This document shows, in pieces, positions 16,251 through 49,931 of a stretch of DNA of 64,000 nt; within the stretch, counting starts at the first letter, position 1, and each line of letters begins with the position of its first letter. The DNA lies in contig JAPETS010000023.1 in the NCBI GenBank assembly GCA_026023565.1, forward strand, positions 434,001 through 498,000, in the 5' to 3' direction. The position numbers and the translations under genes are program-made. The notes beneath the pieces are model-generated. The model saw nothing but the letters and a program-made list of their open reading frames with translations, did no database searches and was not told the DNA's origin. The stretch comes from Cirrosporium novae-zelandiae. Taxonomy: Eukaryota.

Positions 16251-16999
16251 GGAACTATTATTATAGGATTTTTATTTTTTTTATTATTTATTATTTTTTT
16301 CACGAGATATTTTAAATTTATTCAGTTTTATTTATTCTATTTATATTCGTATTGTTATATCGTATAAATATATATATATTATTCCCTTTTTTATTAATAG
16401 TATTTTTCCGTCCAAAACCTTAATTATTTTATATATTTTTTTATTCGCTATTAATAATAGTATTTTTCGTTAAATATACGTATTTATTTTATTATACGAT
16501 ATTAAAACTTTAGCTATAAAAAATATTATTTCAAAAAATAGTAAATAATATTTTTTTTATGCTCAGAAAATTAATATAATTATTTTTTTATATAATTTTA
16601 TTATTTTCAAATATAAAAATAAAATAATAATAAAATTGATCTACCAAATTATAAATAAAAAATATACGATTATAAATATAATTTTATTTTTAATAATTAT
16701 TTTGTCGAAATATTATATTTATAAATCCAATAATATTATATTTATAAATCTAATAATATTATATACCCAAATTCTATAAAATATTATATATATTTTCTGA
16801 TATTAATTATAGAGATTCAAATGTCAATCAAAAAAATTATTTCGTTATATGGTATATAATAAATATAATATTTATTTTTACGGTATATTTTATCCAAAAT
16901 ATTTTTTATATTTATAAATTTTAAATTATATATTTTATTTTATATTTTATTATAATTCTATTAATATATAACGGTATTTTATTTTTTAATTTTTCGTCG

Positions 17000-18200: not shown

Positions 18201-18278
18201 GTTATCGTAAAAATCAGAGAATCTAATAATAATTTAATATTTAAATTTATTTTTAAATTCTATTATTATTTAATATTT

Positions 18279-27200: not shown

Positions 27201-27381
27201 AATAACGATTAAAAATCGTTATTTATTATTTTTAATTAAAAAAATTATCGATAAACTATCGGGAATAATTATATTTATTAAATTAAATATAAAAAATATA
27301 TATTATCGGATCCGTATAAAACGGGGCGACGAATAAAAAACTGTTTTTCGTACGCGTTATAAATATTTTGAATATTTAATG
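18279..27381 (+). mobile_element. Ty3/Gypsy LTR retrotransposon C, 3'-truncated within RT and interrupted by LINE copy 3
   Basis: Begins TGTAAC at 18279 (LTR-like start). Contains a RIPed gag knuckle CxxC-x4-H-x4-C (~26209-26252), protease LI(D)TG (26419-26433), and RT LRL(C)V(D)Y..KNRY..YYRIRIKRGDE*KTVFRTRY..FEYLM (27166-27381). No second LTR in the window. Confidence 0.85.
18886..25284 (+). mobile_element. LINE copy 3, near full length (~6.4 kb), Tad1/I-type with RNase H
   Basis: After RIP reversal: ORF1 knuckle KCANCLGPH..TDGKCP (20663-20713), APE-like DIxLLQEP (~21040-21065), RT GVPQGSPVSPILFLIY (22962-23009) and FVDD (23067-23078), RNase H VFDAEL, DSQxAI and WIPGHxGIxGNExAD (~23940-24345). 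3' tail AATGAATAAT(CAT)4 ends at 25284. Possible degenerate TSD TATGAAAAAC/TATAAAAAAT. Confidence 0.92.
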
Positions 27382-28400
27382 ATTTATTAATAATTAATTT
27401 CGAATAACCAGGGGTTATAATTAATATAATATAACGGAATATTCTATTTATTTCCTAATCTGACCAGTTATAAAAAATCTAATAAAAAAAAAACACCCGG
27501 GCGTTTAATATATAAAATCAGATAATTTTTTTTATAAAAAGAACTGATATTTTATTTTAAATAAATTATAGATCAAAAAAATTATAATTTATTATTTTAA
27601 TATTTTTATTGAGATTAAACGTGTTTATTATACAAAAAAAATTTTATAGAATTAAACGCCCAAAATAAAAAAATCGTTTTTTAAATAATTCTAAATATTA
27701 TTTATATCTACCGCCGATATCGATTAAAAATATATTATTATTTTTATTTTTATTAAAACCGTTAAAAATTTATATTTAAATAAAAAATTATTCCAACCAA
27801 TTTAATTTTTAGATTTGATTAACGATTATCTAAAACTGGAAAATTTTAATTTGTTCAGGATATTTATTCAAATATTTGAAATAATCCAAATTCGTTTTAA
27901 ACGTATTCCAGAAAAATATATTTATAGGCCCAATTAAATATTTGTATTTATTTAATTCGAAATAATCGGATATTTCGTATACGGTTTTCGCTCTAATATC
28001 GTAATTAAAATAATAAATATTTAGTTTGTAATTAATTGTAAAATATAATAAAATATTATTAATTATATTTTTATAATTTTTTCAATCGATAATTTTATTA
28101 TTTTCTAAATGAATATAAAAAATTTATATATTTTTTTATTATTTTTTATTACAAAATCTATAACAGCTAAAACTCGTATTATTTATTTAATAAATCGTAA
28201 ATCCGCGTTATATATAACGGCTAATTCGATAGTACTAATATTTTTATTATCTTTTTTAGAAATAATACGAAATAGATCTAGATTTATATTAAATCGTTAT
28301 AGAACCGATTTTTTTTATTAAAGCTAAAATATATATTTTATATTTTGAAAAAAATTATAGCTGCTATCGAATAATAAAAAAAATTAATAATAAAATTAAA
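27381..28400 (-). pseudogene. O-methyltransferase pseudogene, copy 2 (C-terminus truncated)
   Basis: Minus strand retains LIDIGG (27710-27727), GRLIL (~27647-27661), NWSD (~27458-27469) and TPGYSKLII (~27389-27415). Confidence 0.88.
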
Positions 28401-29449
28401 AAAATAAAATATTAAAAAATAAAAATAATATATAATTTAAATTAAAAACAGTTTTTATACAAAATATAAATAATATAGATATGAGTGAAAAGTTTTTTAT
28501 TTTAATGTTTCAGAATATATTGTTTCACGTGTTTGAATAACTCAATAAATATAGATTAAATCAGGTATTTTAATTATAAGATTTTAATAATTTTAATTAT
28601 TTTACAAATACTTTAAACAAATTAGCGTATAAATTATATAAAAAAATAATAAATAAATCAGAAAAAAATTTAGATTTATATAATAGTAATTTTTAATTTA
28701 TTTATTTAGATATAAGAATTTATATTATATATCTATATATAGTATTATATCTATATATCCGGAAAAAAAAATAGATAAATAGAATTAAATAATAATTTAG
28801 CTAATTTTTATATTTTTTCGTTCGATTATTATTTAGTTACCAGCCGGCGTTTCCTGAATTCGAGTTTTATTATATATTTTAATTTAATTGCGGTAGTTTG
28901 TAATTTAGCGGTAATTATACCGTTTATTAATTTTGAATTATCTATAAAAACTATTAATTATTTTCGGAAAATTTTTCAGATTAATTGGCTGAAATAATTA
29001 TTATTAATAAATAATATTTTGAATTTATTAAATATATTAATAACGGAATTGAAATTTACCAAACATACTAATAATTAGAATTAAAATTAAAACGTTTTGA
29101 AAATTTATTTTTATTATTAATTTATTTTGTTATTAAATATATAATAATATTTCAAATCTTTTAAATACTAATTTTTATTATCGATTTCTTTTATAATTAT
29201 CAGTTCTATAAAAATCAATAAATATTTATTTAGTGATTATTAATAAAATAATTAATATAAAACGTTTTAAATTGAAAATAAAAATTTTAAAGTTTATAAA
29301 TATTATATTTATTATATTACGCAGTAATAATATATAATAATAATAGATTTTTTATTATATTTTTATTATTTATATTTTTTTTATATTTTTTTAATTTTTA
29401 TATTAATAAATATTTTATCTAATCTAAATTTATAATTTTTTTTTTTTTT

Positions 29450-30850
29450 AATATTTTTTATTTTTATTATTATAATAAGATTTTTATTTTTTATAATATT
29501 TTTATTTAATTTAACCGAGAGCGAATATAGAGGCGGTAAAATTATTATAGTAAGTATTACGGTAATTATTATCCAGATTATAATAATTTTAGCACGATTT
29601 TATACCAGAAAATTTAAAAAAAAAATTTTTAGATTAAACGATTTTTTAATATTTATTATATTTATATATATCTATATTTTTTTTTAATATAAAAATAATA
29701 TAATTTAATATTTTTTAAATAATAAGTTTTGGGTAATCTGTTTTATATATTATTAGTACGTTAGTTTTATTTTTCGTTATTTATTATTATTTTATAATAA
29801 TTTGTTTTTCAGTAATTAAAACTGGAGGTATTAATTATTATTTAGCCGTTATCGAAAAATATCCTAAAAAATTAATTAATTTATAAAAAATACGTTAAAA
29901 ATTAAATTAAGTAATAATTACTGATTATTTAAATATTTATAATATTTATATATTAATAAAATAATAAATATACCGTTTATAATTACGCTAGCAAAATTTT
30001 CTATTTTATATTTTTATTTTCGAATTTCTTTTGAATAAAAATTTAAATTCTGGGTCTTTATAATAGAATTCATAATTTTCGATTACGGAATTAATATTTT
30101 ATTCGTTGTTATTTTCTAATATTTTTCTATCGTTTATATTTAGAATAAAATAATTATAGATAGAACCTATTTTAATTAATAAATTTTTTATCGATATATA
30201 TTTATTTTTATTATTATTATAGATATTATAATTATAATATTTTTTTTATTTTTTTTATAGAAATTAAAAATATTTATTAATTAAAAAATAATATTGATAA
30301 ACGTTTTTATTTTAAGGAATATATAAATATTATATTAATCACGCCGCAATATTAAATTGAATTTATTATTTTGTTAAAAGAATTATCGCCAGCTATTTAC
30401 GAATAAATATATTTTTTAATAATAGTGCCATAATTAACCCTATATATAGGTCCAAATCTTATAATCTCTTACGGAGATACTAATATTTCATAAGAGCATC
30501 GGTGGATCTAAATATTTAAATAATAATTAAAAACGTTTTATTTATAATTACTATTTATTTATTATCGTTATAATTTTTTTTCGTTCGTATAATATTTAAT
30601 TATAATATTTCTATAAAATTTAATCGATTAATATCGGTTTTAATATTAATTAAAAATAATAGAACGAATAATAATTATAATAATAAATATATAGGATTTA
30701 TTTATTTCGGCGTAGCTTCTATTCAGAACGGAAAAACGTTAACCGTCGTATTCCGATCGACGTAAAATAATTATTTTTTATTATAGATTGAAATAAAGAT
30801 TATTTCGATTAAAAATCAATTAATATAATTAATATTATAACGCTATAATA
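29450..30850 (+). pseudogene. PTH11-like membrane protein pseudogene A, copy 2
   Basis: ARFYTR at 29592, RL(D)DFLI at 29631, KTGGxxYH near 29820, and ITLAKFSILYFYFRI at ~29982-30026, followed by the FQCxP/WDK and LWxLxM motifs in RIPed form. Confidence 0.82.
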
Positions 30851-31449
30851 TAATCTAAAAATTGGTTTATATATAAAAAAAAAATAGAAAAAAAATAATT
30901 ACGAAAATATATTCTATAAAATAAATTATTTTTAGAGAATTCTTTTTAAAAAAAATATACGGATATATTATAAAAAAATTGCAATTCTTCTATTTAAAAT
31001 CTTTTATATTTTTTAAAATAATTTATATTTTATTTATTTCAAAATTTTTATTTTTAGTTAGTTTCTACCAGATAAATTATTAAATTTTTTTAATATAAAA
31101 AAATAATTCAATTATGAAATTCTATTACTTGAAATATAATTAATATTAAAATTATTTTTAAATCTAAATATATAAATTTTTAATTAATATATTTGTTTTT
31201 TATTATTTAATTCTTTTATAGTTTTTCTGAATATTAAAATCTGCAGACCAATATTATAAGATTTTAAATTTTATATCGATTTAGAATAATTAGAAAAAAC
31301 TGCTAGCTATTATTAAAAAAATTAAAAAAAAATTTTATTAATATTATTTTTCCGTTTTTATCTATTAATATTTATTTATTATTAATTAATAATTTTTAAT
31401 TCAATTTTTTTATTTTTATAATTTCGTGATTATTAATTCCGGAATTATT

Positions 31450-33670
31450 TCTCGGGATCTAAATAATAGATTTTTTCGTATTTATATAATCAGGCCGAAA
31501 ATTTTAATATCGTTTTAAATAGTTATCCGGTCGAATAATATTTTTAGATTTTTTTTCGATTTGGTTGATTTTTTCGACGCGTAATAATAAAAATTTAAAA
31601 AAAAATTTATATATTTTCTTTAATTTTATATAGAAAAATATAATTAAAAAAATAATAAATATTATTAATAATATTTGCCCGATATAAACGATATTATTAT
31701 CCGAATCACGTATAAAAAAAATAGGCTAATCAAATAAAAATTTATAATATAAATACTAATAAAAAATTATATTAACGCTTTTAAATAAAATAAATTATTC
31801 GTATTAGTTTGAAAAACGATTATACGTAATATATTATATTTATATACTGTTAAAAATATAATGAAAATCAAAATATCGAATATTAAAATAAAAAATATAA
31901 TAATAATATAAATAATATTTACGTAATTTATCAGTATTTATTAAGTTTTTTTAAAAATTTAATCTATTAATACAAGCTAAATTAATATAAATAAATAGAA
32001 ATTTTTTTTTTTGAATAATAAAAAAATATATTAATTTTATCGTTTTTTATAGTGCAGTTTTATTACAGAATAGGATTATTACGAATTATCGGAATATATT
32101 TTCTGTCTAAATAAATGCAGCCGTACCCATTAAAAATATATAAAATATTAGATACGAAAAAAAATAATTATTAATTTTAGAAAGATTCGTTATAAATATA
32201 TTGGGTACGGTATAAATATTTTATATAAAATCAGCTATCGTCGTAGCAATATCCGAAAATAAAAAAACCGTTAGAAAGATTTGAATAAACAAAAATATAA
32301 AATAATAGTTCTGAAACGAGAATTCGATAATTAATTAAATATAAAATCCTTATTAATTCGCGAGAAATCGTAATAATACCGGGATTAATAATATTACACC
32401 GGCTAGCAGAATTTATAGAAAATATTTTTGAATAAAATTAAATACTTCCGTAAATAGATAATTCAATTAATCAAATTATAATATTACTGTAGTTATATCG
32501 TTAATTTACGATATTAAATTAATTAAAATAATCGGTCCGGTTTATCCGATAATTAATATAATAATAATTAATATAATGAAAATTATTCGGATCTAATATT
32601 TAAATTAATCTATCGTTAAATTTTTCCAAATAATATTTTAAAATAAAATTTTAACGTATTCAATTAATATAATTTATAAACGGTAATTTATTATCGATCG
32701 ATACGTTATATATACGGTAAAATAATTATTAAATTAAACGAAAATAAAATTTATTAACGGTAATTATTCCGTTTTTTTTTATATTTTTTTAATTTTAATA
32801 TTAAATCGGTCTAATTTTTTACAGTAATTATTAATTTAATTAATTTTTTTTTTAAAATTGAAAAACTGAATTTTTTTTAATTATATTTTAAATAATTTTT
32901 TCGTTAATAATAATAATAATTATTATTATTAATTAAACGTTTTTCAAATAAAAAATTTAATAAAACGTTTTAAATAAATTTGGTTTCCGTTCGTTTTAAT
33001 TTATAAATAATTTTAGTTCGTTTATTAATTTTTTTTAATAAATTCCGGAGGTCGCGATTAATCCAGATATTACGAATTCTACCCGGAAATTTATTATATA
33101 GATTACTCAAAATTTTTATTATAAATAATTTTTTTGGTATTTTAGTTATTAATATAATAGCTGCAAAAATTTAATAACGTTGAACGGATAAAATAAAATA
33201 TATTTATCGGATATAAATATAGATACGTAATTCATTATATATTGTATAATATATATAGACTATTATAATTAAAACTGATATAAAATAATTCTAATAACGG
33301 ATTAAATATTTATAATTTATATTTATTTAATTTAATTAATTTAAATTATAAATACCGTCAGTAGTATTTTTTCCGCCAATATAATTTAGAAATATAAACG
33401 TTAGAATAATTACTAAAACTATAAATATAAATATTTTAAATATTATACGTAAATAACGGAAAAATAAATATACGTCTAAATTTAATTATAATAACAAAAT
33501 ATTATCCTAAAATCCTAGAATAAATACGATCCAAAATTGAAACTATATTAAAACCGATTTTCTAATTTTTTTATATTCGAAAATTAGAAATATTTCTAAT
33601 TAATTAAATAATTCAGTATCGTTTATTTTTATTTTATGATTCAGGGATTTATTATATTCTAAAATAATAT
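31450..33670 (-). pseudogene. CSC1/OSCA channel pseudogene, copy 2
   Basis: Minus strand retains FPGRIRNIWINRDLR (~33045-33090) and IEFSFQNYYFxFLFIQIFLTV (~32268-32330). These two stretches are partly deleted from copy 1. Confidence 0.85.
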
Positions 33671-33674
33671 ATTT

Positions 33675-36362
33675 AAACGTTAATTTTTTTATTTAAATTA
33701 AATAAAAACGTAATTTAAATTAATTTTTAATTTATTATTTATATTATCGATTATTATATTTGTTAATTATTTTTAAAACGATTTTATAATAGAATTAATT
33801 ATTATTAAATTAATTATTAAATAATAAATTTTTTTTTTTTAAATTAAATATTTTAAATAATATTATTTTATATAATTAAATTTTATTTTTTTATAAATAT
33901 TATTAAAAACGTATTATTTATATAAATAATTCGTTCGGATTTTTATATTAAATTATAAATATTAAAATTTTTTATTAATATTATTTTATTTTTATTAAAA
34001 ATAAACTTTTATTTTATATTTTATAAAATTTTTTTAAATTTTTATTATCGATTTTATTTTTAAAAATATATATTTTTTAATTTTTAATCGTAAATATTGA
34101 TTATTTTAATTAAATTTTTTATTTTTTTTTTTATATTTATTTTATTAATATTTAATATTCCGAAATAAAAATAATTAATTAAATCGGTTTTTACGATTAT
34201 TTTAAATACGATATTTTTTCGATTTTTATATATAATAATAATCGTTTTTATAATTTTATTTTTTATTTAAATTTTTAATTCGGATTAATAAAAATTTTAT
34301 ATTAAATATAATATTTTTTTTTTTTAATTTTTAATTAAATTTTTATAATAATATTATATTCGTTTTAATTTATATAATTAATTTTAAAATTATAATTATT
34401 ATATCGTATTTTTTATAATAATTATATTATAATATTTTTATTTATATTTTAAATATATTATTATTTATTTATAATACGAATATTACCGATATTTTCGGTA
34501 TTAATAATATTTTGGATATTATATATATATATTTTTTTTTATTTTTTTTTAAATTTTTAATACGGGGTTTTTAGTTTTTAATTAAAATTTTATAGATTTA
34601 TTTTTTTTTTAAAAAAAGAAATACGTAAAATAATTATACAACGTTTTTTCGGCGTTTTTTTATATATTTTATTTTTATTTTTCGGGTAATTAAATATTTT
34701 TTATTTGTAATTATATAAAAATCTAAATAATTTATATATTTTAATAAAATATATATATAAATTTTTATATACGCGGGTTTATATTTTAATTAAATATATT
34801 TTAGATACGTTTTATTTATTTTTAATATAAATTATCAGATATATCGAAATCTATATTTTATTAAATAATAATTTTCGATTTTTTATTTTTTATATATTAC
34901 GAACGGGAATTTTATTTTAATTAAAATAATATATTTTTTTAATACGAATCCGGTTCGTACCCGTTTTTAATAATATTTTTCCGGCGTTATTTATACGATC
35001 ACCGTATTTCAGAATAATAAATAAATATTTTTTAAATTATTTTTTATTAAATTTAATTTTTTTAAATTTTTAAATATTTTTAAAAATATTTTTTATATTT
35101 TTATTTAATATAAAATTTTTAATAAATATATATTTATTATTATATTATTTATTTTTATTATAATTTTTAAAATTTTTTATTTATATTTAAATATTAATAT
35201 ACCCGTATTAGTTTTTTTATTGAATACAATTTTTAAATTATTTTTTTTATTAATATAGGTATCCCATATCCGTAATTTAATATTAATCGCCGTTATTATT
35301 AATATTATAAAATCTAAATATTCGGTTTTTTTTTCATTAAAAATTAATATTTTCTGATTTTTAAATCCCTATTTACGGAATTAATACGTTTTTTTTTATA
35401 GGATTTAATTATTTATTATTTTTTATTAGATTTATTTATTATTTTATTAATTATTTTAATATAAATAAATCCTGTAAATTCCGGTATTATTTTTATAAAA
35501 ATCTATTTCGGGGTTTTCGATATTAATAATAAAATTATTTATTTAATTATTTTTATTATTTATTAAAAAAATTTTTAGATTTTTTTATTCGTTTATATTC
35601 TTATTCGTCTATTAAATATTTATAATCCGGTTATTATATTTATTCGGGATATTATTAAAAAAAATATTATTTTTTTTTTTTTATTATTTATTCGGGTTTA
35701 ATTATTAAAATTATATAATTTTTATTTATAAAATTTTTTATTCCGTTATATATAATTTTTATAATTTTTATTTAAATTTATAATATTTAAATTATTATTA
35801 TAATTATTTTTTTAATTATTAAAAATTTTTATTTAATTATATATAATTTTTTTTAATTTTTTTTTTAAATTTTTATAATTTTATTATTTCGTTTTTTCAA
35901 AACGATTATTTAAATTTTTAAACCGAAAAATATTTTCCGTAATTATATTATAAAATTATCGATTTTTAATATTTAATATATTTTTTTTTCGATTACGAAA
36001 AATATATATATTATTATATATTTAATTATTTATTCAATTAAAATATTTTGATTATTAATTTATTTTTTTATAAAATTTTTCGACGATATTTTTTTATTTA
36101 ATCGTTTTTTTTTAAAATAAAAATTATAATATTAAATTATTAAATTTTATTATAAAATTTTATTTTAATTCGTTCGATTCGTTTTTTAAATATTATTATT
36201 TTTTCGTATCCGTTTAATTTTCGTTAACGGTACGTATTTTTTTAATTTCTGATATTTCTCCGCTGTTACTAAATTCTATAAATCTTAAATAAATATTAAA
36301 TATTTCGTATAACGATCGTCACAATAGTGAATTGATTTGGTGGCGCGGGGTCACCAAAAACT
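33675..36362 (-). mobile_element. LINE copy 4, 5' portion only (5' UTR, ORF1, endonuclease)
   Basis: Direct match to 7789-10560. Intact 5' end TTTGGTGGCGCGGGGTCACCAAA at 36336-36358. Confidence 0.88.
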
Positions 36363-36380
36363 TTTTTTTTTTTTTTTTCC

Positions 36381-36717
36381 AGATATTAGATAAAAACTGG
36401 GCCCGTAATAGAAAAACGGGGTAAATATATATATAAAATACAAAAATTAAAAATCGAAAAATAAATATAAATAAATTTATTTATAAAATTCGGATATTAA
36501 AATAACGCTAAAAACTATCCGATTAAATAAATCAAATAATTCTAAAAAATTAAAAAAAAAAAAAATTATATAATCGAATTAAAAAAACTAACCTTTATTA
36601 TTTTAATTAAAAATAAATCCGAAAAAAAATATAAAAAATTTTTAAAACCCTTAAATAGAGTCCGTTATAGTTTCTAAGCGATATATAGATATAAAACAAT
36701 GAATAATCATTATCATT
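36381..36717 (+). mobile_element. LINE copy 5, short 3' fragment
   Basis: Matches ~24945-25284 and ends AATGAATAATCATTATCAT. Confidence 0.85.
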
Positions 36718-36778
36718 CCCCGACTGTTAGAAATATACGTATTACCGTATATCTAATTATTTACTCGATTAGGGTATC

Positions 36779-37107
36779 TGTCAAGGTTAGGGCTCTCATA
36801 GTGTAAATAGCGATGCGGATAATTAATATATCTATATCGTAATAATATTAAAATAATAATACTTTTATATAATATAAAACTAAAAACTAGTTTTTCTTAA
36901 TTTTTTTTTTATTTTTTTATATAAATTTTTTTATTTGATATTTTTTCGGTAATTTATTAATATTATATAACGTTATTTTTTTATTTTTATTCCGTTTTTA
37001 ATTTTTAAATGTAGCGATTTTTTTTATTTTTTTTTTTTTTTTTATAATAGAATTTTTTTTTATAATAGAATTTTTTTTTAATATTTTTTTTTTTTTTTTT
37101 TATAATA
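36779..37107 (-). repeat. 3' LTR of Gypsy D
   Basis: Starts TGTCAAGGTTAGG and ends TTTATAATA (RIPed TTTATGACA). Aligns with 43622-43959. Confidence 0.88.
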
Positions 37108-37474
37108 TAATTTTTTTTTATACGATTATTTTTAACCGTTATTTTTAATTTTTTAACGTTAATTTTCCGTTCCGTTAAATATAATTTTTTTTTTTAAATT
37201 TAATAATATTATAATATATATAAATTCCGTTTTTTATCTATTATCGTTTTTTATTCAGCGAAATTATTATTTTTTTTATTTTTTTTTTTTTTAATAAAAA
37301 TTTTTTTTATTATCGTTTTATTTCGTTTTTTTATTATTTTTATTATTTATTTATTATATTAATATTACTATTTTCATTTTTATTAATTATTCCGTTTTTT
37401 CGGGATTATTATTTTTATTTTTTATTCGGATTAGCGTTTTTTTTTCTGAATATAAATAATCGTTATTTTTTTTT

Positions 37475-37514
<40 letters not shown>

Positions 37515-40500
37515 CCCCGTTTTTTTTTATTTTTTCCGTTTTTGTTTTTTCGACGTTCCTATTAATTATATTTTAGATTTATTTTTTTTTTATTTATTTT
37601 TTTATTTACTATTATTACTATTATTATTATTATTATTATTATTATATTTTTCTCGCGCCCCTTTTTTTCCGTCCCTAATCCTATTGCTGCTGTTCGTGGC
37701 GTTCTTTTTTTTAGATTTATATATCTGAAATATTTCTAGCGTTTTGCGGCAAATCCTTTTTTCGTATATTCCTAAATATCTGGCCGTTTCTATAACGTCT
37801 ATTATAAGTAGTATAAAAAATATCTCGAAATATTATTTTTTTTTTTTTTTTTTTTTATTTATTATTTTTTCAGATTTTTTTTATTCTGGTGTTTCGTTTG
37901 AACCGCCTGTTTGCGTAGATTGATATTATCGTTTCCGCCCGTCCTAATAATATTAATACCGTTTTTCGTAAAAAACTTTTGGTCTCGGTCTATCGTTTCT
38001 ATCGTCGGATTATAATTATTTATCGGTTAAAACATATTATATTATTTAATTTCTACGTCCATATTAATCAGTTATTATCTGAAATTAATTAATTTATTCG
38101 GTAATTAAATTAGATATTTACGGCTATTATACGTATTTTTTTTATTTTCGTACGTTTTTTTTTTAATTAATTTTAAATATTATAATGTAAATATCGATAA
38201 TAAAAAAAAAATAATAACGATAATATAAATTATTTTTTTTATAATTTTTTTTTTAATAATATTTTTACGGGTATTAATATTAATATTAATACGGTTTTTA
38301 AAAATAATAAAAATTTTAACGTTATTAAAAATACGGTCGATATCTAAATTTTTATATAATTATTAATATTCGAGCGTTTTTTATTATAGATTATATACGT
38401 TTAAAACGCGTTTTTTTTTCGATAAATATTCCGTGATTTTTAAAATTATTAATAAAATTCTTTTTTTTTTTTTTTATTTTTATTATTTTTTTGGTTTTTT
38501 TTTATTTCGTTTTATTTTTTTTCCGGCGATATTCCTATTTCTATTTTTTTTTTTTTATTTTTTATTATTTTTTTTTATTTTTTTTTATTTTTTTTTTTAA
38601 AATATTTTTATATTTTTTTAATAATTCGCTAGATTTTCGATATTTTTTTATTAATTTTCCGTATATAACCAGTTTTTTTATTTTATTAAATATTCGTTTT
38701 TTCTTTTTTTTTTTTTATATTCCAATATTTTTTTTATTATATATTCCGGTATTCTTATTAATAATATTGATTCCGGGAATTTATAATCCGGATTTATTTA
38801 TAAAATTTTAATAGTAATACGTGGAATATCGGATATAATTTTTGGTATTATTAAAATAACTATAATCGATACGTATTTTATTCGTATATAATTTTTATAA
38901 TAAACGGTTTTAAATATTTTATATTTAATTTTTTATTTATTTATTTCGTTTTTATATTTTTTCTTATTAATAATATTTAATTTTTTATTTTATATTATTT
39001 CGATATATAATAACGATCGTAATAAATTTTTTATTTTAAAACCGATTTTTTTTATATTTTTTATATTTTTTTCTATATTTTTTTTTATTTTTTCTGTATA
39101 TATTTTTTTAATAGGATTTTTATTTTTTTTTATTTTTTCTATATTTATTTTTAATTCTGGTTTAAATATATATATTATTTCGAATAACGTTTTTTTCGTT
39201 TTTTAATATTTCGTATTATTATATATATATTTTGTATTCGTTAATAATATTATTTAATCGTTTTAATTATAATTATAATATATTTTTAAATATTTTTTTA
39301 ATATTTAATTTTATTTTTCGGTTTAATTATTCGTTTATAAATAATAAACGATATTTAATTTTTTTTATATTATTAAATAATAATAAAATAATTTTTAATA
39401 AATATTAATAAATAATAATTTTTTATCCGATATTATATTTTTAAATATTTTAAATTTTATTCCAACCGTTTTTTATATTAATTCTATTAAATTTTTTATT
39501 TTTATTTTTTTTATATATAATATATATATAATTAATTTAGAATATTTATTTATTATTATTAAAATTATATTATATATATTATTATCCTGTTTATTTAATA
39601 ATAAATTAATAATAAAATCTATTATTATTATTTTTATTACATTTTAAAAATATTATAATAATATTAAAATTTTATAAAATCGATAATAACCCGTTTTCGA
39701 TCGTTAATATATATCGTATTATTTTATATATTTTTTAATATTTTCGTTTATTTTTATTTATTAATATTTTTTATTTATTATTTCTCTCGTTTTTTCGTTC
39801 CTAAAATATTTTTTAGATTACGGAAAATTATAATTTATTTTTATTATTTTTTTTTTAGCGCGGTATTATTTAATATATATACCGTTTTATTTCTCCGTAA
39901 TAGACCTGTATCGTTTTCGTCCTATTTTTTTTTTATCTCTTTTTTTTTTTTATTTTTTTTTTTATTTTTCTCTTGTTTTTCTTTTTCTATATATATCCTG
40001 TATCAGGGGTTTAATTTTTGTATTTTCCGTAATAAATTTATTAATATTTCTAATATTTTTTTTTTGATTTATTTTTTATTATTATTATTTTATATATTTT
40101 TCGTAATAATAAATAATTATATATATATTATACGTTTTTCATAATATATTCTAAAAAATTATTTATTTTATTATTTTTTTTTATCGTTTTTAAAAATTTT
40201 TTTGATATTGAAAAGATTTTTCTGGTAAATAATCCGTATTTTATACGATTTAACGCCGTTATCGTAATTATTAATTAATCGAATATTTTAATTTTTTTTT
40301 TTTATATTATTTAAATTTATTTTATAACGTAAATAATAATTTATTTTTCGTTTTTTTATTTCCGTTTTTTTTATATAATCTAATTTTTTTAATATATCTG
40401 TTAGATTAGTTTTCCCCGTTCTATATATTATTTCGAAATCGTATTCCGCCAGTTTTTCTGTTTAGCGTATTTGCCGTTTATTTAGCGCCGTTATTTTTAT

Positions 40501-42606
40501 AAATAATTATAAATTCCCGTAATCTATTAATATTTATATTATATATTTATTTTTTTATAAATAATAATTCCATTTTTTGAATTTTTTTATAATTATAAAT
40601 AATTTAAAATTATATATTATATATTTTTATTTTAATTTTATTAGTTTTTTTAATTAGAACGTAATTAAATATTATATTCTGTTTTATAATTATTTTATAC
40701 GTTTATTATTTAATTACGATAGAATTCCCGTAATTCTTTTTTATAATATATCCGTTTCTATTTTTATTATTTTCGTTAGATTAAAATAATATAATATAAA
40801 TATTATTATAAATATTTTTTTAAATATTTTAAATATTATTTGCGCGATTTCGGATTATATAAATTTTTTTATTTTTTTATCGTTTTTTATTTTTTTTAAT
40901 AAATTTATAATAAAATTTATTATTTTTAAATAATTTTTTATAAAATTTATTATTTTTAAATAATTTTTTATAAACTTTTTATAAAAACTAATAAATTTAA
41001 TAAAAATTTAAATATTATAATAATTTTTTGGTTTCGGTTATTTTAGAATTGTTTTTATTTTTTATTTTTTTATACGGATTTTTTACGTTCCGATTACGAA
41101 ATTTAAAAACGTTATTTCCGGTTTATTAAATATATATTTTAATAATTTTATATATAATTTATATTTACGTAATTATTTTAATATTTATACGTATACTATA
41201 TATTCCGCGATATTAAATAAATAAATTAAAATATCGTTAAAATATATTATATAAATTATATTTAAAAAATCGAATAATATTTCGTTAATATATATTTAGA
41301 ACGTAATTAAAATATTTATTAATCCGAATAATATTATTATACATTTAAAATATCCGTATTAAATATAAAAAATAATTTTTTATTTATTTTTTTTTATTCG
41401 GATTCGGTAATAAATATTTTTTAAATTAAATTTTATAAAAATTTTTATTTATTTTAATTTATTTAATATTTTTTTAATTAATAATAACGAATATTTATTT
41501 TTAATTATAATCCGATTAAATTTTTATAATTTATATATAAATATAATATTCCGTCCGATTTTAATATAAATAAAATAAATTTTTTATATAAATTTTTTAA
41601 ATATTCGATCCGTTTTTTTTTTAAATTTTTATTTAAATATTTTTTTAATATTCGTAATTATTTTTCGTTTAATAAATAAATTAATAAATATAATAATATT
41701 TAATCAGACTTTAAATCGATAATATATATTATTTTAATTATATTCGATAATTATATAATTTCTTTTTTTAAAAATATATTTTTATAATTTTAATATTTTT
41801 TTAATATTATTATTTTATTTTTTATTCCGTTTTTATTATAATATTAATATAATATTATTATTTTTATTTTATTATTTTTTTTACGAATTTTTTAAACGAT
41901 ATAATTTTGATTTTTATATATTTTTCGTTAATATTCTAATATATTTATTTATTTATTTTTTAATTTATTTTTAAATTTATTTTTTTTAATTAATTTATTT
42001 TTAATATTATTAATTTATTTTTATTTTTTATATTTATATTAATTATTTTCTGGATATATTATCGGATTATACGTATTAAATTTATTATATATAATCGTAA
42101 TATATATTTTTTATAAATAATTTTTTTTTTTATTTATTTTTATTAATTCTATTAATAATTTTTCGTTTTTTTTTATTTTTTATTATTTAACGAATCGTTA
42201 TAATATATAATTTTTTTCCGTTTTTAAATTAATTAATACTTTCGTTTTTTTTTTTTAATAATATTTATATTTTTATTTTAATTATTATTTTTTTATTTAT
42301 AAATATTTCGGCGATTATAAAAATTTTATTTTCCGAAATTATTTAATAAATCCGTAAAATTTTTTTAAATTATTTATTTTTTTTCCCGTATTTTTTTTTA
42401 GTATCTAATATTATTTTAATAAATATCCCAGTTTTTTATAATTCTAATAAATAGACGTATTTTTTCCGATTTTCGGTTTTATAAAAATTTTTTTTATAAT
42501 TATTACTGTCGTTATTTATTTTTTTTATTATTTTTCGTTATTTTATTTCGTTATTATTTCGTTATTTTTTTTTTATTCTAACGATTATTCGTATTTTTTT
42601 TTTATT

Positions 42607-42680
<74 letters not shown>

Positions 42681-43621
42681 CGTTCTATATTTTTATTATT
42701 ATTTTTATTATATTTTTTTTTTTTTTAGTATTAACCTGTTTATTATTATAGTTTTTTTTAATAATAATTATAAATAAAAAAATATCGTAATTATTTTTTA
42801 GAAATTCGTATTCGTGAATAAAAATAATTATATCTGGAAATTCTATACGTACGCGTAAAATACGTATAATATTTAGTCCGGTATTTATTCGATACGTATA
42901 AATATTTTTATTATTTTAAAATTTTTATTTTATAAATCGTGGATTTTTATTTTTAAAAATTTTTTAAATTTTATTTAATTAAATTGGTTTTTTTTTTTAT
43001 CGTTTATTTATATTATAAATCTCCGATAATATTTTATAAAAAATATATAATTATAACGATTTTATTTTTTTTTATAAAATATATATAAAAAATTTTTTCG
43101 AAATAAATTTTATTTTATCGAATAAATATTTTTAATTTTTTATAATTTTTTTTATAATAATTTTCGGGCGTTAAAAATTTTATTATAAATAATTTTTTTA
43201 GATTTCGGTTTTTTATATAATTTATATATATTTTAATAATAATATATTTATATTTTATTCGTTTATTTTTTAATATTTTTAATTTTTTTATTAATTTTTT
43301 TATTAATTTTTTTATTTTTTTTTATTTTTTAATTTTTTTTTTTAATATTTTTTTTTTTTCGTTATTTTCGTTTTTTATTTTATTTTTTTTTTATTTATAC
43401 GTTTTAATTTTTTATTAATTATTTTCCGTTTTTATATCGTCCGTTTTTTTTTTTATTTTTTAAATATTTTTTTTTTATATTTTTTATATCGTTCGATTAA
43501 ATATATATAAACGTATTCCGTTTTTCGAATCATTATCGGAATTAAAAATTTTTAACGTTTATATTATCGTTTATTCGTTATTTAAATTATTTTTTTTTTT
43601 CGTAAAAAAAATTTTTCAGAA

Positions 43622-43959
43622 TATTAAAATTAAGATTCTGATAATATAAATAACGATATAAATAAATAATATATTTATATCGTAATAATATTAAAATAAT
43701 AATATTCCTATATAATATAAAATTAAAAACTGGTTTTTTCCAATTTTTTTTTTATTTTTTTCCAATTTCTTTTTTTATTTTTTTATATAAATTTTTTTAT
43801 TTAACGTTTTTTCGGTAATTTATCGGCGTTACGTAACGCTATTTCCCCGTTTTTATTCCGTTTTTAATCCTTAAATATAGCGATCTTTTTTAGTACTCTA
43901 TTTCCCCTCTTTTGTGACAGAACCCCTTTTTAGTATTCTCTTTCTCTTCCTTTATGACA
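43622..43959 (-). repeat. 5' LTR of Gypsy D
   Basis: Starts TATTAAAATTAAG (RIPed TGTCAAGGTTAGG) and ends TTTATGACA, followed by TSD GTATC. Confidence 0.88.
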
Positions 43960-44692
43960 GTATCCCGATTATTAATCTATTTTTTTTTGGGGTTTTTGCT
44001 CCCCCGTAAAATCCCTCGATAGCGTTTTTCCGTCTAGTTTTTTTTTCTGGAATAGGGATCGTAATACCGAATCGCTAAATTTTATCGCAAAACTTTGCCC
44101 CAGTTCGTTCGACTCGTTTTTTAGGCGCTGTCGCCCTTTCGTATCCGCCCCGTTCTCGCTTACGGCACGCACGCTTATAGTTCCCGATTTTTCCCCGATA
44201 CTGCTAGACTTTATAGGCCCTAAATAGGCGCTAAATATTTAGTATAACGGTCGTCACAGTAGTGAAATGATTTGGTGGCCCGGGGTCACCAAAAGTTTTT
44301 TTTTTATAGGGACCAATTAAATCTCTAGTATAAATGAAAGCAAAATCGACTATAAAATAAAAAAGATATTTGATTTTTTAAAAATTAAATAGTTAGTTAG
44401 ACCGCTACGCTATAGTCTTCGACTAAATATATTTAATAAAGAATTAAAATAAAAATAGAGTAATATTAGTGTATATTCTATACTCGCGGCCACCCTAGTT
44501 ATATTATTTATACTAATATGCTTGGCACGGAATATACCGGAATCTTAATATAACCTTTGCAAGAAACTATATAAACACCGACAATATTATTATTACTACT
44601 AGATAGTAGTTATCTATTATTTTGACCTTAGTCTTCTTTATATCTTCGTTGACGATCATAAGCCACTGTGACCGTGATGAGAACCCTAAGCG

Positions 44693-45751
44693 TCACCACT
44701 CCATATTTTTGGATGTTTTACACCCAGCCCCCCCATCTTCGTTTTCTACTTTTTCTTTTTTCCCGACTTCTTTCCTATACGCCACCCCAAGCCCTTTATC
44801 TCTGCTCCAGTCATAAATTCCTCCCCTCTGCTTGAACCCTTCCTCATCCCAGATAACCTCTTCCAACGCTTTATCCACCCCGACATCCAAAATTGACGCT
44901 GTTGGCTTCCCTGCTCCTTGGGTTGGCCGATTGAGAAATCGCATATGTTCATCGAGAATGAGATAGGAACTCCTCATCACTCCATTTGGTTCATGCACAA
45001 AGCATTTGTTATGAGAGTGTTTGTCACAGAATACCTGGTACTGCTGATCGGAGATAACAAAATCCTGGGCATTGCGCAGTCGATCAGAGTTTTCATTTTC
45101 GCCGGGTACGACCAAGACTTGAAAGCATTTCCATCGAAACGGCGCAATCTCTCGGATTCCTTCGTTCATATCCTCTTGGAAATTGTACTTGTTGACTACT
45201 GTGTTTAGCTTGAATTTAATGCCATAGCGATGACATAACTTTGCACATTTCACCACCGAGGGGAGGTGATCCCCTTTCCCCCTTCCAATTCTCACATTCG
45301 TAGCCTCATTGAATGAATCAACGCTTATGGCCATGATGTCAATGTACTTCCCATATTCTTGCATCCATGTCTCTGTTACTTTGCTCCCATTAGTCACAAT
45401 ACTCACACTCTCCAAACTCAGCTCCTCCTTGCAATATTTCGCTAGCTGGCCTAGATACTTTGGGTATAGAAAAGGCTCACCGCCCGCGAAATTGAGCTTG
45501 CGAAGACCAGCAAGTGCGAGGCGGGAGAGACCTTGGTACGCGCGGTTGAGAGGTTCATGGTAGCTGTCTGACGCTGTGTGGAAGCAAAAACCGCATTCGT
45601 AGTTGCACCGACGCGTAAAGTGATAGTTAACTGAGATGGGGATTTTGCGCCGTGGTTTGCGGCGGCTATCAAGGATCACATAGAGCCAGAACAGGAGGAT
45701 TAGGGCAAGGGGGTAATAGAAGCGGATGACTGTAGTGATAGAAATACCCAT
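44693..45751 (-). CDS. RSAD2: Viperin-like radical SAM enzyme (ddhNTP synthase family), 352 aa, intronless
   Basis: SVNYHFTRRCNYECGFCFHTA (CxxxCxxC), KLNFAGGEPFL, SIVTNGS, AISVDSFNE, FKLNTVVN, RWKCFQVL, SYLILDEHMRFL and RGGIYDWS. N-terminal hydrophobic anchor and C-terminal Trp. Confidence 0.97.
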   Translation of the reverse strand: MGISITTVIRFYYPLALILLFWLYVILDSRRKPRRKIPISVNYHFTRRCNYECGFCFHTASDSYHEPLNRAYQGLSRLALAGLRKLNFAGGEPFLYPKYLGQLAKYCKEELSLESVSIVTNGSKVTETWMQEYGKYIDIMAISVDSFNEATNVRIGRGKGDHLPSVVKCAKLCHRYGIKFKLNTVVNKYNFQEDMNEGIREIAPFRWKCFQVLVVPGENENSDRLRNAQDFVISDQQYQVFCDKHSHNKCFVHEPNGVMRSSYLILDEHMRFLNRPTQGAGKPTASILDVGVDKALEEVIWDEEGFKQRGGIYDWSRDKGLGVAYRKEVGKKEKVENEDGGAGCKTSKNMEW

Positions 45752-47096
45752 AACGATAAGACTGATTTAAGAATTGATGGTGATCAGGTAAGTGTCTCTT
45801 ATTCGATGCGGTTGCCTATTTCAGTGCAATGGAGATAAATAGACTCTTTACCAGCCGTTGGTTTCCAGAGTGTTGACTATTGACCATAGATATCTATATC
45901 TAGAAGCCTGGCCCAGAACCAAGGGTGTTCTAGAATTATATTAATCTTGCAAGACAAAGGGGACGGCAAACAACTTATCAGACAGAATCCTAAACGAAGT
46001 GCTTGCTACTTTTGCTTGTTTAGACAAACAAGAATGGTATCTCAGCGGATCCAGTGAACAAAAGGTCGGCATCTTACATAGAGATTCCTGTTCTGCCTTA
46101 CTGGACCTACCCGATACATTACATTCCTAAAACTACCAAATGTCCTACGGGCGCTTTACCAGGGAAGCAGACTATTGTGTTGCCAGCATCTAGGCGCATG
46201 GTCTTCTTTTAACAAAATATGTAGGCATATACCCGACGAAATTATTTGCACAATACCAACAACGGTAGTCGTAAATACTTTGAAGAGTAGAATTATGGAA
46301 GCACTAATAAATGGTGAGAGGGGCTATTTATTATCTTAAAAAGGTTTCCGGAGAATGCGGAGGAAGCTAAGCAATTCGAAGAGCAGGTAGTGTGATTTTG
46401 ACTAGGAATCCTCGTCTAGATTTGATCATATAACTGGAATTTGTGTAGATTTTTCGGCCTTTGGCAGCAATCAATATTCGCAAGGACGACAAACATCATG
46501 CGCGGTTTGACTGGAAAGTGAATCTCTGTTGGGGTGTATGAAATGGGCCAGAATGTTTGTGGAGAAGCAAGGATGCTATCTAAAGCATAGGTGATCTTTA
46601 TAAGAGTATTTTAAGGATCCAGATCCATTATATCAGGCATGTGCTGGGAGCATAATACAGAAAGTAGTCTTATCAGCAGCCAACAGGTCAGCAATGGGAA
46701 GCACCCATGGCGTAGGGTAATATGCTATAACATCTTTGCCCCCGTCTATTGATGTAGCTGTTCTACTGGGCCAGCCACGGTCGAGCGTACTGATCGCGAA
46801 CAAGAGAAAGATTAATAACACCATCCAGAAACACAAGAAGACTAGAATGGCAATTGGTGTAATCTCTATGGGTTCGAGAGACAGAATGTTTAAAGAAACT
46901 GTTTCAGAAAAGGAATCAAATAATTAAATAAACCACCAAGCAATAATAAGGCCAACTTACTGGTAGAGTATTGGTAGGATAAAATTCTGGGGATTTACCC
47001 TCCTCTTCCTCTTAATTTAAACATCCTCATTTCATCTCTTTTACCGTCTTAATTCAAACCCAGAGAGATTTCTTTGTCACAATCACAGCTCCAGCC

Positions 47097-47711
47097 ATGC
47101 TTCTCGAGGTTGAACAGAAGTTCGTCGTCGCCCTTTCTAATCTTACCAAGTTCAGGGTAAATCGCGGTACTCCTCCATTCAAGTCCCTGAAGTTTTCCAA
47201 GAACATTACCTTCGAAGATGTGTACTACGACCACAACAACATTCTTTCCGGCCTGGGCATATGGATCCGCAAGAGAGACAACCAGTGGGAGGCGAAGCGA
47301 CGCATTTCCGGCGATTACCTCCGATCCACATTTGACGAGACTGGAAATCCCGACCAGATTCATGGGATGCTCAAAGATCTAATACCTTACAGGGTTCTTA
47401 AGAGCCCCGAGAGAAACTTCGGCCTCGACGTGCTGGCAAGATTCAGAACCACCCGTGAGACCTACATAGCCAATGAGAAGTATACGATTGTTTTGGACTC
47501 GACGGATTTTGGACACATGGTTGGTGAGATAGAGGTTATGGGCGAGGATGAAACCAAAGCTCATCAGGAAATCGACAACTTCCGTCAACAGCATTCTTGG
47601 TTCTTTGAAAGTGGAAACCCCGAAGGGAAACTGTCCGCCTACTTTAGGAAATTTGGACGGCAACAACTCTTCGGCGAAAGGAGGTCCAACGGCGATCAAG
47701 GCGTGATCTAA
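47097..47711 (+). CDS. CYTH-domain triphosphate tunnel metalloenzyme, thiamine-triphosphatase-like, 204 aa
   Basis: N-terminal ExExK (LEVEQKF), EDVYYD, GIWIRKRD, WEAK, FRTTRE, IVLDSTDFGHMVGEIE and GKLSAYF. Confidence 0.88.
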   Translation: MLLEVEQKFVVALSNLTKFRVNRGTPPFKSLKFSKNITFEDVYYDHNNILSGLGIWIRKRDNQWEAKRRISGDYLRSTFDETGNPDQIHGMLKDLIPYRVLKSPERNFGLDVLARFRTTRETYIANEKYTIVLDSTDFGHMVGEIEVMGEDETKAHQEIDNFRQQHSWFFESGNPEGKLSAYFRKFGRQQLFGERRSNGDQGVI

Positions 47712-48182: not shown

Positions 48183-49931
48183 TTAGACACGGGGCCATCT
48201 GGCGTGCCACTCCACGTCATCCAGGATGCCCTTCCCCATATTCCGCACATATTGTGAGCCGCCATCCACAATGGGGGTATAATCCCAGGATGTTTGAACG
48301 CCCTTGCTCAATGCAGACCAAATGACTCGTCGTCGGCGCTGTGATTCCAAAACCTTTTTCGTCAATGCATCAAAATTCCATCTCTGGGAAACCTCTTCTA
48401 GGAACAGAGCGAGAAGAACCGATGGATCAGAGTGAGAAGTAGTTGTATTGGTGGCGCTGGCGGGCACAATGGTACCAGGACTAGGTGTGTGGGGAGGAGA
48501 GGGCATAGCAACTGGTGCGAAAGGGAGGTGAAGATTTGGAAGAGGTCTAACAGACTTTTGCGAGCGAGTTGGAATAGGCAAACCAGCCACTAAATTTGTT
48601 CTCTCAAGAGGATCGGCAACAAGATCGAAAAGCATTGGAGGGTCCAATGGCGAATAAATGAACTTCCATCGATCGCGACGAATCATAACTAAGGGTGCAA
48701 GGGTGCCCTCACCCATGTATTCTCCAATGACGGTATCCGGTCTAGGTCCCTCGATTTGTGCGATATATGGCATCAATGAAGTGCCATCAACGGGCAATCT
48801 TAGATCCCTGGCACCTCCTGCCATGTCCACAAATGTTGGAAGAAGATCTAGTGTAGAGACATTCTCATGCACACGATGTGGCGCATACAGCCCAGGCTTG
48901 TACACCAACATGGGCACCCGGGCTGACATCTCGAAGAATGCCATCTTGTACCAGAGTCCCCTCTCACCTAGCATATCACCATGGTCGCCAGAGAAGATAA
49001 TGATCGTATTGTCTGCCATGCCGGTAGCTTTGAGGGTCTTCAGAAGCTTGCCGATCTGGTCATCGACATATGTGCAGGCGGCGAAGTAAGCCCGCCGGGC
49101 AGCTCGGATCCTCTCTTCTGGGATTTCACTACCCCATAAATCAATGCATTTCAATATTCGTTGAGAGTGTGGATCCTGCTTGTCTTGTGGGATAGCGGCA
49201 GTTTTTGGCATTGGGATCTCAACGTCCTCATAAAGATCCCAGTATTCTTGTTCCATCGTGTATGGATCGTGAGGGTGGGTCATTGAAACAGTAAGACAGA
49301 ATGGTTGATCACCTCGGTGCCTTACATGGTCCCACAAGTATTGATTAGATTTGTAGATGACCTCATTGTCATAGTCCAGTTGATTTGATCGACCGCATGG
49401 ACCAGCATCAAGAACTGACGACATGTTGTGATAAAAATCAAGGCGAACCTCCTACTCATATATATTAGTTACGTTTAAACTATGAAATAGAGGGCTATTT
49501 ACCGGTTCATCCCAATTGACGGACCAGCCATAATCGCCTGGATAAATATCACTTGTTAATCGTTGTTCATAACCGTGAAGCTGGTCTGGTCCAATATAAT
49601 GCATCTTTCCAGCCAAGGCAGTGTGGTAGCCTGCCGCTCTCAGGTAATGTGCATATGTTACAACGTCGGCGGGAAGATCGCTGGCATTGTCAAAGGCGCC
49701 GATTTTGGAGGGCAGTCGACCAGTCACAAGTGCAAAACGTGAGGGAGCACAGAGGGGAGAGTTGCAGTAGGCTTGGTCAAAGACTACACCATTCTTGGCC
49801 AAATGATCGAGGTTTGGAGTCTTGACACGAGATTCGGGATCGTACATTCGCAGCATAGGAGCGGCCATCTGATCAGCCATGATGTAGAGGATGTTGGGCT
49901 TTTGGCCCGAGTTTTGAGGGTCGGAAGCCAT
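48183..49931 (-). CDS. betC: Choline sulfatase, 2 exons (49931-49503, 49451-48183), ~565 aa
   Basis: PNILYIMADQ, formylglycine motif CAPSR, GKMHYIGPDQLHGYE, HPHDPY and GDHGDMLGERGLWYKM. A 51-nt GT..CTAAT..AG intron restores WDEP-EVRLDFYHNMSSV. Confidence 0.93.

Follow-up and report, generated by a model that had tools for sequence, protein, structure and literature searches.

Few immune enzymes extend from bacteria all the way to humans. Viperin does, and the partner gene known for it encodes a nucleotide kinase. The subject of this analysis is a stretch of 64,000 nucleotides from Cirrosporium novae-zelandiae (contig JAPETS010000023.1, positions 434,001 to 498,000 of the forward strand), called the window throughout, in which a viperin gene lies beside a gene of the CYTH or triphosphate-tunnel metalloenzyme family whose product resembles thiamine triphosphatase (ThTPase). 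A ThTPase-like CYTH gene within about 5 kb of viperin was found to recur across divergent genomes. The new element is that the known fungal viperin-kinase module is extended by a ThTPase-like hydrolase and that the kinase has been lost in the window. We see about an even chance that the two genes are the remnant of a fungal cluster of viperin, CMPK1-type kinase and ThTPase-like CYTH protein, in which the latter acts on the viperin product, a 3'-deoxy-3',4'-didehydro (ddh) nucleoside triphosphate (ddhNTP).

The closest described system is the viperin-kinase module, known as the RSAD2-CMPK2 pair in vertebrates and as viperin with CMPK1-type kinases in fungi. The fungal linkage has already been published by Shomar et al. 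(bioRxiv 10.1101/2023.09.13.557418), who also report that two fungal viperins give ddhUTP and that the fungal viperins tested are mainly ddhUTP producers. The loci related to the window likewise place viperin head-to-head with a kinase of the family PF00406; they differ from the published module in the CYTH gene, since the accessible part of that report mentions no ThTPase-like CYTH neighbour, and the window itself differs in having a kinase relic only. The same text contains one sentence on four viperins fused to a 'triphosphatase or cyclase' domain, with COG1437 among three domain definitions, which likewise ties viperin to a CYTH-type domain. However, that sentence concerns fusions only and includes class III cyclase domains (PF00211/COG2114), whereas the CYTH protein of the cluster described here is encoded by a free-standing gene.

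Two further systems are related through the CYTH domain itself. The plant proteins TTM1 and TTM2 (7z67), as far as the material available to us describes them, likewise couple a triphosphate-tunnel domain with a P-loop domain of the pyrimidine-nucleotide-kinase type (uridine-kinase-like), but the kinase domain there belongs to another family and is fused to the CYTH domain, viperin is absent, and the fold match to the window CYTH reaches a template-modelling (TM) score of only 0.44. The mammalian 25-kDa ThTPase (THTPA; 5a64, 5a65, 3tvl, 3bhd, 2jmu) is the best match of the window CYTH both in sequence and in fold; it differs in that the identity is 22-26%, that one residue of the thiamine pocket is not kept and that the fungal protein has viperin and a kinase as neighbours. 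According to the sections consulted of a 2021 review on thiamine triphosphate (ThTP), a specific ThTPase has not been identified in fungi (PMC8615392). The initial annotation of the window knew of no description of the pairing, which stands for the free-standing CYTH neighbour and has to be qualified for the fusions; no other report on viperin with CYTH, ThTPase or triphosphate-tunnel proteins, or on ddhCTP with THTPA, was found in a literature search that left most subscription journals outside its range.

In the window, viperin on the minus strand and CYTH on the plus strand diverge from an interval of 1345 bp (Table 1). That both genes are intact and intronless, as first annotated, is borne out by the map of open reading frames (ORFs) and by the alignment of both proteins, end to end and as single ORFs, with their homologues. 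The 352-aa viperin scores 255.5 bits against the NCBIfam model NF038283 viperin_w_prok, above the cut-off of 180, 376 bits against TIGR04278 viperin, short of the cut-off of 450, and 71.6 bits against the radical-SAM family PF04055. Its residues 35-318 match 7n7i, a solved fungal viperin-like enzyme, with an E-value of 4e-114, and this enzyme and two others of its kind, 9dfw and 6b4c, are all matched at about 1e-114, followed by mouse viperin 5vsl at 3e-99. The CxxxCxxC motif reads CNYECGFC, with C49, C53 and C56 invariant in the alignment A3, and a hydrophobic helix is found at the N-terminus. The C-terminus, M-E-W, fits the tripeptide [LIM]-[DES]-[WF], which is described as a signal for cytosolic iron-sulphur delivery in the part seen of 10.1101/2023.05.19.541488; in nine related loci the viperin ORFs end with LDW, LEW, FDW, LNW or LEF. 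Because of the very close match to solved fungal viperin-like enzymes, the window viperin would be expected to convert CTP or UTP to the corresponding ddh nucleotide.

To follow the CYTH gene through other genomes, metagenome contigs of the Joint Genome Institute (JGI) were scanned with a profile of 26 CYTH relatives (alignment A1). This gave 52 loci, which collapsed into 35 groups when the matched peptides were clustered at 90% identity, and all of these loci were then searched with the window viperin. Of the 18 related groups that were informative, 13 have viperin within 4.5 kb of CYTH; a group was taken as informative and unlinked if no viperin was present although at least 2 kb, and up to 10 kb, could be read on each side. 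Since viperin is found this close in 13 of 18 groups, the pairing is commoner than chance, which the initial annotation had put forward as a check, and it is conserved far beyond the one genome from which it was described.

Additional cases came from predicted proteins and from a collection of prokaryote genomes. The NCBI locus tags of CYTH and viperin are two apart in Caloplaca ligustica (L6R39_004316 and L6R39_004318) and in Loekoesia sp. (Q9225_006821 and Q9225_006823); the genes in between, L6R39_004317 and Q9225_006822, do not appear among the best 120 of 7900 matches of a kinase profile. For two further pairs, the CYTH and the viperin protein give the same small longest contig, of 4766 bp and 4359 bp, respectively, and in one case (P0454, 605 aa) a single predicted protein combines viperin and CYTH, with 54% and 39% identity, respectively, to the window proteins. 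A pair from Lasallia pustulata, which shares a longest contig of 1.16 Mb, was not counted as adjacent, as the accessions are 84 apart. One locus of the prokaryote collection (L053), which is compositionally eukaryotic, carries CYTH, kinase and viperin together. Its record bears the title of a chromosome from a metagenome-assembled genome of the actinobacterium Lapillicoccus. In the stretch in question (L053:1-10891) the GC content is 28-62%, ORFs are sparse, the kinase is split by an intron and the viperin, with 53% identity, is of the fungal type; the stretch looks eukaryotic, and the record may be mislabelled or chimeric.

The kinase was found as a third member of the cluster. According to Pfam scans of ORFs of at least 100 aa around CYTH in 11 linked loci, together with a tblastn map of all loci, a UMP-CMP-kinase-like gene of the ADK family (PF00406) is present in nine of the 13 linked groups. 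Two of the remaining groups (L036 and L039) have adequate flanks and no kinase, and the other two (L030/L032 and L040) are too short to judge. CYTH and kinase also occur together on two short contigs (L035 and L045), and an ADK part is combined with CYTH in two predicted proteins, P0346 and P0154, the latter from Lasallia. Because the kinase accompanies nine of 13 linked groups, the cluster is a three-gene unit of viperin, kinase and CYTH. The initial annotation had proposed a two-gene, head-to-head system in which the CYTH protein took the place of the kinase. The head-to-head arrangement holds for the window, but a two-gene pair of this kind, with a single promoter in common, is not the ancestral state: in seven of the nine kinase-bearing groups it is the kinase that lies head-to-head with viperin, the other arrangements being the tandem ones of L011 and L034. 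Likewise, the CYTH gene adds to the kinase module instead of replacing the kinase.

Kinase and viperin are also found next to each other without a recorded CYTH, as in Trichoglossum hirsutum (M1813_007244 and M1813_007245), and kinase-viperin pairs that give the same longest contig, again without a recorded CYTH, were found in Tirmania nivea and two other assemblies. The merged Lasallia pustulata model P0154 also contains a Kelch propeller, in addition to CYTH and a UMP-CMP-kinase part that is truncated; this suggests that kinase and CYTH are separated by a Kelch gene there, or else that the gene model is wrong. In L016 only, an ORF with an Acid_PPase domain (PF12689; L016:5511-6092) lies about 1 kb past the cluster kinase.

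Although the trio is kept, its arrangement is not. The linked loci show at least seven combinations of gene order and orientation, and those scanned (L001, L007, L016, L020, L023, L027, L029, L030, L036, L037 and L039) share no flanking Pfam family with one another or with the window. The linked CYTH proteins are 33-50% identical to that of the window, and a difference of 50-67% indicates a deep divergence. These observations bear on the possibility that the adjacency is inherited synteny or chance, devoid of functional meaning, for which it could be said that functionally unrelated neighbours are common in eukaryotes and that the linked loci are of shared ancestry. We hold this to be highly improbable, since it does not account for a trio that persists while outer flanks, order and orientation change and the CYTH sequences drift so far apart, nor for the fusions or merged gene models (P0454, P0154 and P0346). 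A functional membership of the CYTH protein in the viperin cluster, on the other hand, appears very probable. In one case (L027:2059-5272 and L034:5-2957) the CYTH genes cluster at 90% identity or more while the order of the trio is CYTH, kinase on the minus strand, viperin in the one and viperin, kinase, CYTH in the other; these could be two copies of the cluster or the result of a recent rearrangement.

Table 1. Features of the window and composition of the related loci (V, viperin; K, kinase; C, CYTH; strand in brackets in gene orders; RIP, repeat-induced point mutation)
Feature	Position or loci	Strand	Basis or remark
Viperin (radical-SAM ddh-nucleotide synthase family), 352 aa	44693..45751	-	uninterrupted ORF, family models, PDB matches
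Interval: viperin promoter side, kinase relic, CYTH upstream region	45752..47096		ORF map
Putative decayed UMP-CMP-kinase-like relic	46082..46392	+	3' third of exon 1, two frames
CYTH / triphosphate-tunnel metalloenzyme, ThTPase-like subfamily, 204 aa	47097..47711	+	uninterrupted ORF, PF01928, profile, model
Choline-sulfatase-like gene, two ORF pieces	48183..49931	-	PF00884, PF12411; in no other cluster locus
AT-rich, RIP-like block	1..44000		GC 0.10-0.23 per 2 kb; index 0.26 at 40000-44000
Order V(-)K(+)C(+)	L001, L020, L023, L029; window		mirrored in L053; relic K in window
Order C(+)V(-)K(+)	L007, L037
Order C(+)V(-)	L030, L036, L040
Order K(-)V(+)C(+)	L014/L016
Order C(+)K(-)V(+)	L027
Order C(+)K(-)V(-)	L011
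Order V(+)K(+)C(+)	L034
Order V(-)C(+)	L039		357 bp apart
Viperin-linked groups (13)	L001-3; L007-9+L019; L011; L014+L016; L020+L024; L023; L027+L034; L029; L030+L032; L036; L037; L039; L040
Kinase-bearing linked groups	L001-3, L007-9/L019, L011, L014/L016, L020/L024, L023, L027/L034, L029, L037
Unlinked informative groups (5)	L004-6; L010+L012+L013+L015; L017-18; L021-22; L025
Groups too short to judge (10)	L026, L028, L031, L033, L035, L038, L041, L044, L045, L051
Distant groups without viperin (7)	L042, L043, L046, L047, L048-49, L050, L052		identity up to 33%
Outer flanks	L001		protein kinase
Outer flanks	L016		GNAT, Acid_PPase, Rad4, alginate lyase
Outer flanks	L020		NmrA
Outer flanks	L027		Abhydrolase_3, tetraspanin
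Outer flanks	L037		BTB, CRAL_TRIO, EamA, DUF4246
Outer flanks	L039		PAS, GDPD, WD40, DEAD
Outer flanks	window		choline sulfatase and AT block

In the commonest gene order the kinase occupies the place of the 1345-bp interval of the window, in which the ORF map shows no kinase ORF. The kinases of the related loci are two-exon genes whose exon 1 stops right after '...DGFPRxxxQAxxFE..', and a hidden Markov model (HMM) of this exon, built from seven loci, was run on all 3347 six-frame pieces of the window. The two best matches, 46318-46392 (HMM positions 82-101, E 0.11) and 46082-46336 (HMM positions 58-83, E 4.6), are adjacent and colinear on the plus strand, and both fall within the interval. 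When the interval was shuffled 1000 times with its dinucleotides preserved, the observed score was reached once. In addition, 46330-46389 is the best tblastn match for five of seven cluster-kinase queries, and the matching stretch is followed by GTAGTG at the position where the kinases of related loci enter their intron. We read 46082-46392 as a decayed pseudogene of the cluster kinase, which would leave the window with a relic and without an intact nucleoside-monophosphate kinase within a few genes of viperin. This reading is limited to remnants of exon 1, which were detected only with cluster-kinase queries and the exon-1 HMM: the relic is without P-loop, an exon-2 HMM found nothing in the interval (its best matches lie in the AT-rich block at E of 1 or above), and a tblastn search of the interval with the merged Lasallia model P0154 detected no kinase up to an E-value of 10. 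In the two well-flanked linked loci that are without a kinase, no convincing kinase relic was found.

The cluster is situated at the edge of a 44-kb AT-rich isochore, and about 700 bp separate this block from the stop codon of viperin. Past 44 kb the GC content is about 0.45 and genes begin, viperin and CYTH being the first two. RIP was considered as the cause of the kinase decay and rejected, as the index (CpA+TpG)/(ApC+GpT) is 1.29 in the interval against the low value of the AT-rich block given in Table 1.

The 204-aa CYTH protein scores 31.1 bits against PF01928 (cut-off 23.2), and its ExExK motif is formed by E4, E6 and K8. Among the 26 relatives of alignment A1, E6, R58, K67, E81, R120, D134, H140 and E144 are invariant, and E4, K8, Y43, W56, R60 and E146 almost so. 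Searched against solved structures, the A1 profile finds mouse and human ThTPase best (E 2e-17 to 3e-16), the next relative being an archaeal CYTH protein at 1e-4. An AlphaFold (AF2) model built on the same alignment has a mean local confidence (pLDDT) of 93.0 and a predicted TM score (pTM) of 0.85, and its top Foldseek match is 5a64, mouse ThTPase with bound ThTP (TM 0.74), followed by human ThTPase and then by other tunnel enzymes. Foldseek gave 76 PDB matches at E up to 0.001, and the top 32 ranks among the matches listed are triphosphate-tunnel or CYTH-type entries. The model thus has the eight-stranded beta-barrel fold of the tunnel enzymes.

The catalytic dyad of mouse ThTPase consists of Tyr-39 and Lys-65, and the thiazole ring is held by stacking on Trp-53 (PMC4641920, PMC8615392, in the parts consulted). 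On the profile alignment, along which the residue numbers were counted by hand, these three align to Y43, K67 and W56 of the window CYTH, so that the ExExK motif, the dyad and the stacking residue are all kept. A further position of the thiamine pocket, Met-195, is not conserved in the fungal family, where T, S, A or E is found in 'GKLxAYF'. As judged from its sequence, the window CYTH carries all catalytic residues of a terminal-phosphate hydrolase.

Other members of the same fold make a different product, and the CYTH protein could in principle cyclise the viperin nucleotide or release inorganic triphosphate from it, yielding a signal or an exportable metabolite. Class IV adenylyl cyclases (3n10, 2fjt) do share the fold, the fused domains of Shomar et al. 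are called 'triphosphatase or cyclase' in the sentence quoted above, and fungal gene clusters frequently encode metabolite pathways. We regard this as very unlikely, as the cyclases rank well below the ThTPases in the fold comparison (TM 0.51-0.55 against 0.71-0.74) and the family profile matched no cyclase in the PDB at E up to 1.

A different question is whether the linkage is old. A quick maximum-likelihood tree was calculated from 47 CYTH rows, to which the locus groups contributed 26 (of 35) and the proteins of a word-indexed search 21 (of 30), short and partial rows being omitted. Viperin-linked CYTH proteins appear in every major clade, which does not fit the ordinary syntenic orthologue that would have spoken against the pairing. 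The unlinked rows fall into two clades nested among linked ones; L007 is the sister of the first (support 99), and L020 and P0022 stand next to the second. The fewest changes of linkage state that the tree allows are two across 18 linked and five unlinked rows. The simplest reading of the tree would be that linkage is ancestral for the CYTH family and was lost twice.

How the cluster might work can be outlined as follows. The kinase would feed pyrimidine nucleotides toward UTP and CTP, and from the triphosphate viperin would make the chain terminator, ddhUTP or ddhCTP. In the CYTH protein the triphosphate tail would pass along the tunnel while the conserved tryptophan stacks against the ring system, and the terminal phosphate would be taken off, which converts ddhNTP to ddhNDP and phosphate. 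This step may limit the poisoning of the cell's own polymerases, or it may start a route to a non-phosphorylated ddh-nucleoside. Removal of the terminal phosphate is proposed because the closest sequences and folds are ThTPases, which carry out this reaction. The viperin product itself, ddhUTP or ddhCTP, appears to be the most economical substrate, because it offers, like ThTP, a planar unsaturated five-membered ring beside a triphosphate arm for stacking on tryptophan. Taken alone, the assignment of a ddh-nucleoside triphosphate as substrate is tentative, falling at or slightly short of an even chance. A reason for self-protection is provided by the misincorporation of ddhCTP by mitochondrial RNA polymerase, as reported in the available part of a 2025 paper in the Journal of Biological Chemistry (PMC11982959).

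The same linkage would be expected if the CYTH protein hydrolyzed the normal pool of UTP and CTP, which would either leave less competing nucleotide and strengthen the termination of viral RNA or throttle the supply to viperin. In two unlinked loci (L022:9965-13173 and L025:5061-7716), which represent sister groups (L021/L022 and L025), a large ORF combining AAA_17, a P-loop kinase type, with a HAD phosphatase domain follows downstream of CYTH, and in L022, where the gap to CYTH is 69 bp, a uracil phosphoribosyltransferase (UPRTase) domain is added; this ORF may be a separate gene or joined to CYTH by an intron. The association with pyrimidine-nucleotide metabolism is thus seen again even without viperin and speaks for the proposed action on the viperin product as well, yet it counts as one evolutionary event. 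An archaeal triphosphate tunnel enzyme has moreover been solved with ATP bound (7nsd). Hydrolysis of the normal pool nevertheless seems unlikely to us, because it would oppose the co-clustered kinase, which builds this pool; sequence does not separate NTP from ddhNTP as substrate.

Several points weigh against ddhNTP hydrolysis in a conserved viperin cluster. The three ThTPase determinants are all kept and are compatible with ThTP as the true substrate, and an NDP product could be recharged by nucleoside-diphosphate kinase, which would make its formation a weak way to detoxify. The linked groups are not phylogenetically independent, and the tree was a quick one with support from the Shimodaira-Hasegawa-like approximate likelihood ratio test (SH-aLRT) only, which leaves 17 of its 44 inner branches without resolution. 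Five informative groups are unlinked, and three of these (represented by L004, L012 and L018) lie in a syntenic context that looks like housekeeping, among genes for a methyltransferase, a Kdo/APH-like kinase, an aldo-keto reductase, an AP sigma subunit and Maf1. The CYTH family also appears to be much rarer than fungal viperins, with 30 against 1991 relatives in the word-indexed search, so that CYTH accompanies a minority of fungal viperins and most viperin-bearing fungi seem to be without it. Finally, prokaryotes offer no parallel in the set we covered, the 80 best viperin loci of the prokaryote collection including L053: the family HMM finds no CYTH within 5 kb in the other 79, and PF01928 is found in none of 95 short ORFs in the immediate neighbourhood, 56 longer neighbours lying outside the Pfam scan.

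Part of this evidence would suit a housekeeping enzyme, a true thiamine or inorganic triphosphatase that shares the neighbourhood of viperin, and perhaps its stress regulation, without sharing its substrate. In addition to the kept residues and the groups with housekeeping-like neighbours, the top fold match is a ThTPase bound to ThTP, and a kinase and a ThTPase could in principle cycle ThTP, since adenylate kinase is reported to be able to synthesize it (cited in PMC8615392, as far as consulted). A housekeeping role leaves unexplained, however, why viperin stays within 4.5 kb through seven architectures with unrelated flanks, why linked copies occur in every major clade and why a viperin-CYTH protein (P0454) exists; the thiamine-pocket position of Met-195 is also not conserved in the fungal family. 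On balance we consider it unlikely.

Against 1.84 billion representative proteins the A1 profile gives 1532 matches at E up to 1e-3, 869 at E up to 1e-10 and 159 at E up to 1e-30. Named holders include Lasallia, several Teloschistaceae, Exophiala viscosa, Rhynchosporium agropyri, in which CYTH is present twice, and a glomeromycete, Entrophospora candida. All named best matches of the two proteins are fungal, most of them from lichen formers, and together with the base composition and the introns in relatives they indicate a filamentous ascomycete as the source of the window. In the Teloschistaceae there are at least two viperin paralogues per genome (P0075/P0161 and P0104), e.g. in Xanthoria calcicola with the tags _005550 and _009907. 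In the prokaryotic survey the family HMM was applied to 3097 ORF pieces of the 80 loci and matched L053 only, while ten of the loci have a neighbour of the thymidylate-kinase type. Two prokaryotic loci with a ThTPase-like CYTH (L133 and L134) contain neither viperin nor kinase. Three viperin loci from Dehalococcoidia (L099:4071-6947, L114:4072-6968 and L115:4077-6899) have a histidine-phosphatase gene (His_Phos_1) immediately upstream and an NAD-dependent epimerase/dehydratase immediately downstream, and these may represent a prokaryotic viperin context with a phosphatase of its own.

A wider idea, which we think quite unlikely, is that the tunnel enzymes of the ThTPase type arose as phosphatases of the ddhNTPs made by viperin and perhaps still act as such in animals. 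It is put forward because ThTP resembles ddhCTP in having an aminopyrimidine, an unsaturated five-membered ring and a short triphosphate arm. If it were true, animal ThTPase, long a puzzle, would be the missing enzyme that starts the conversion of ddhCTP to circulating ddhC, and in the fungal cluster all three enzymes of the original pathway, for supply, synthesis and disposal, would still be found together.

A partner that would remove phosphate and is kept with viperin through many rearrangements suggests that a step of disposal, control or maturation is built into the viperin system of these fungi. The CYTH protein is a candidate enzyme for the protection of the cell's own polymerases from ddh-nucleotides and for the dephosphorylation of the latter, and the cluster gives the ThTPase-like proteins of fungi a role that can be tested.

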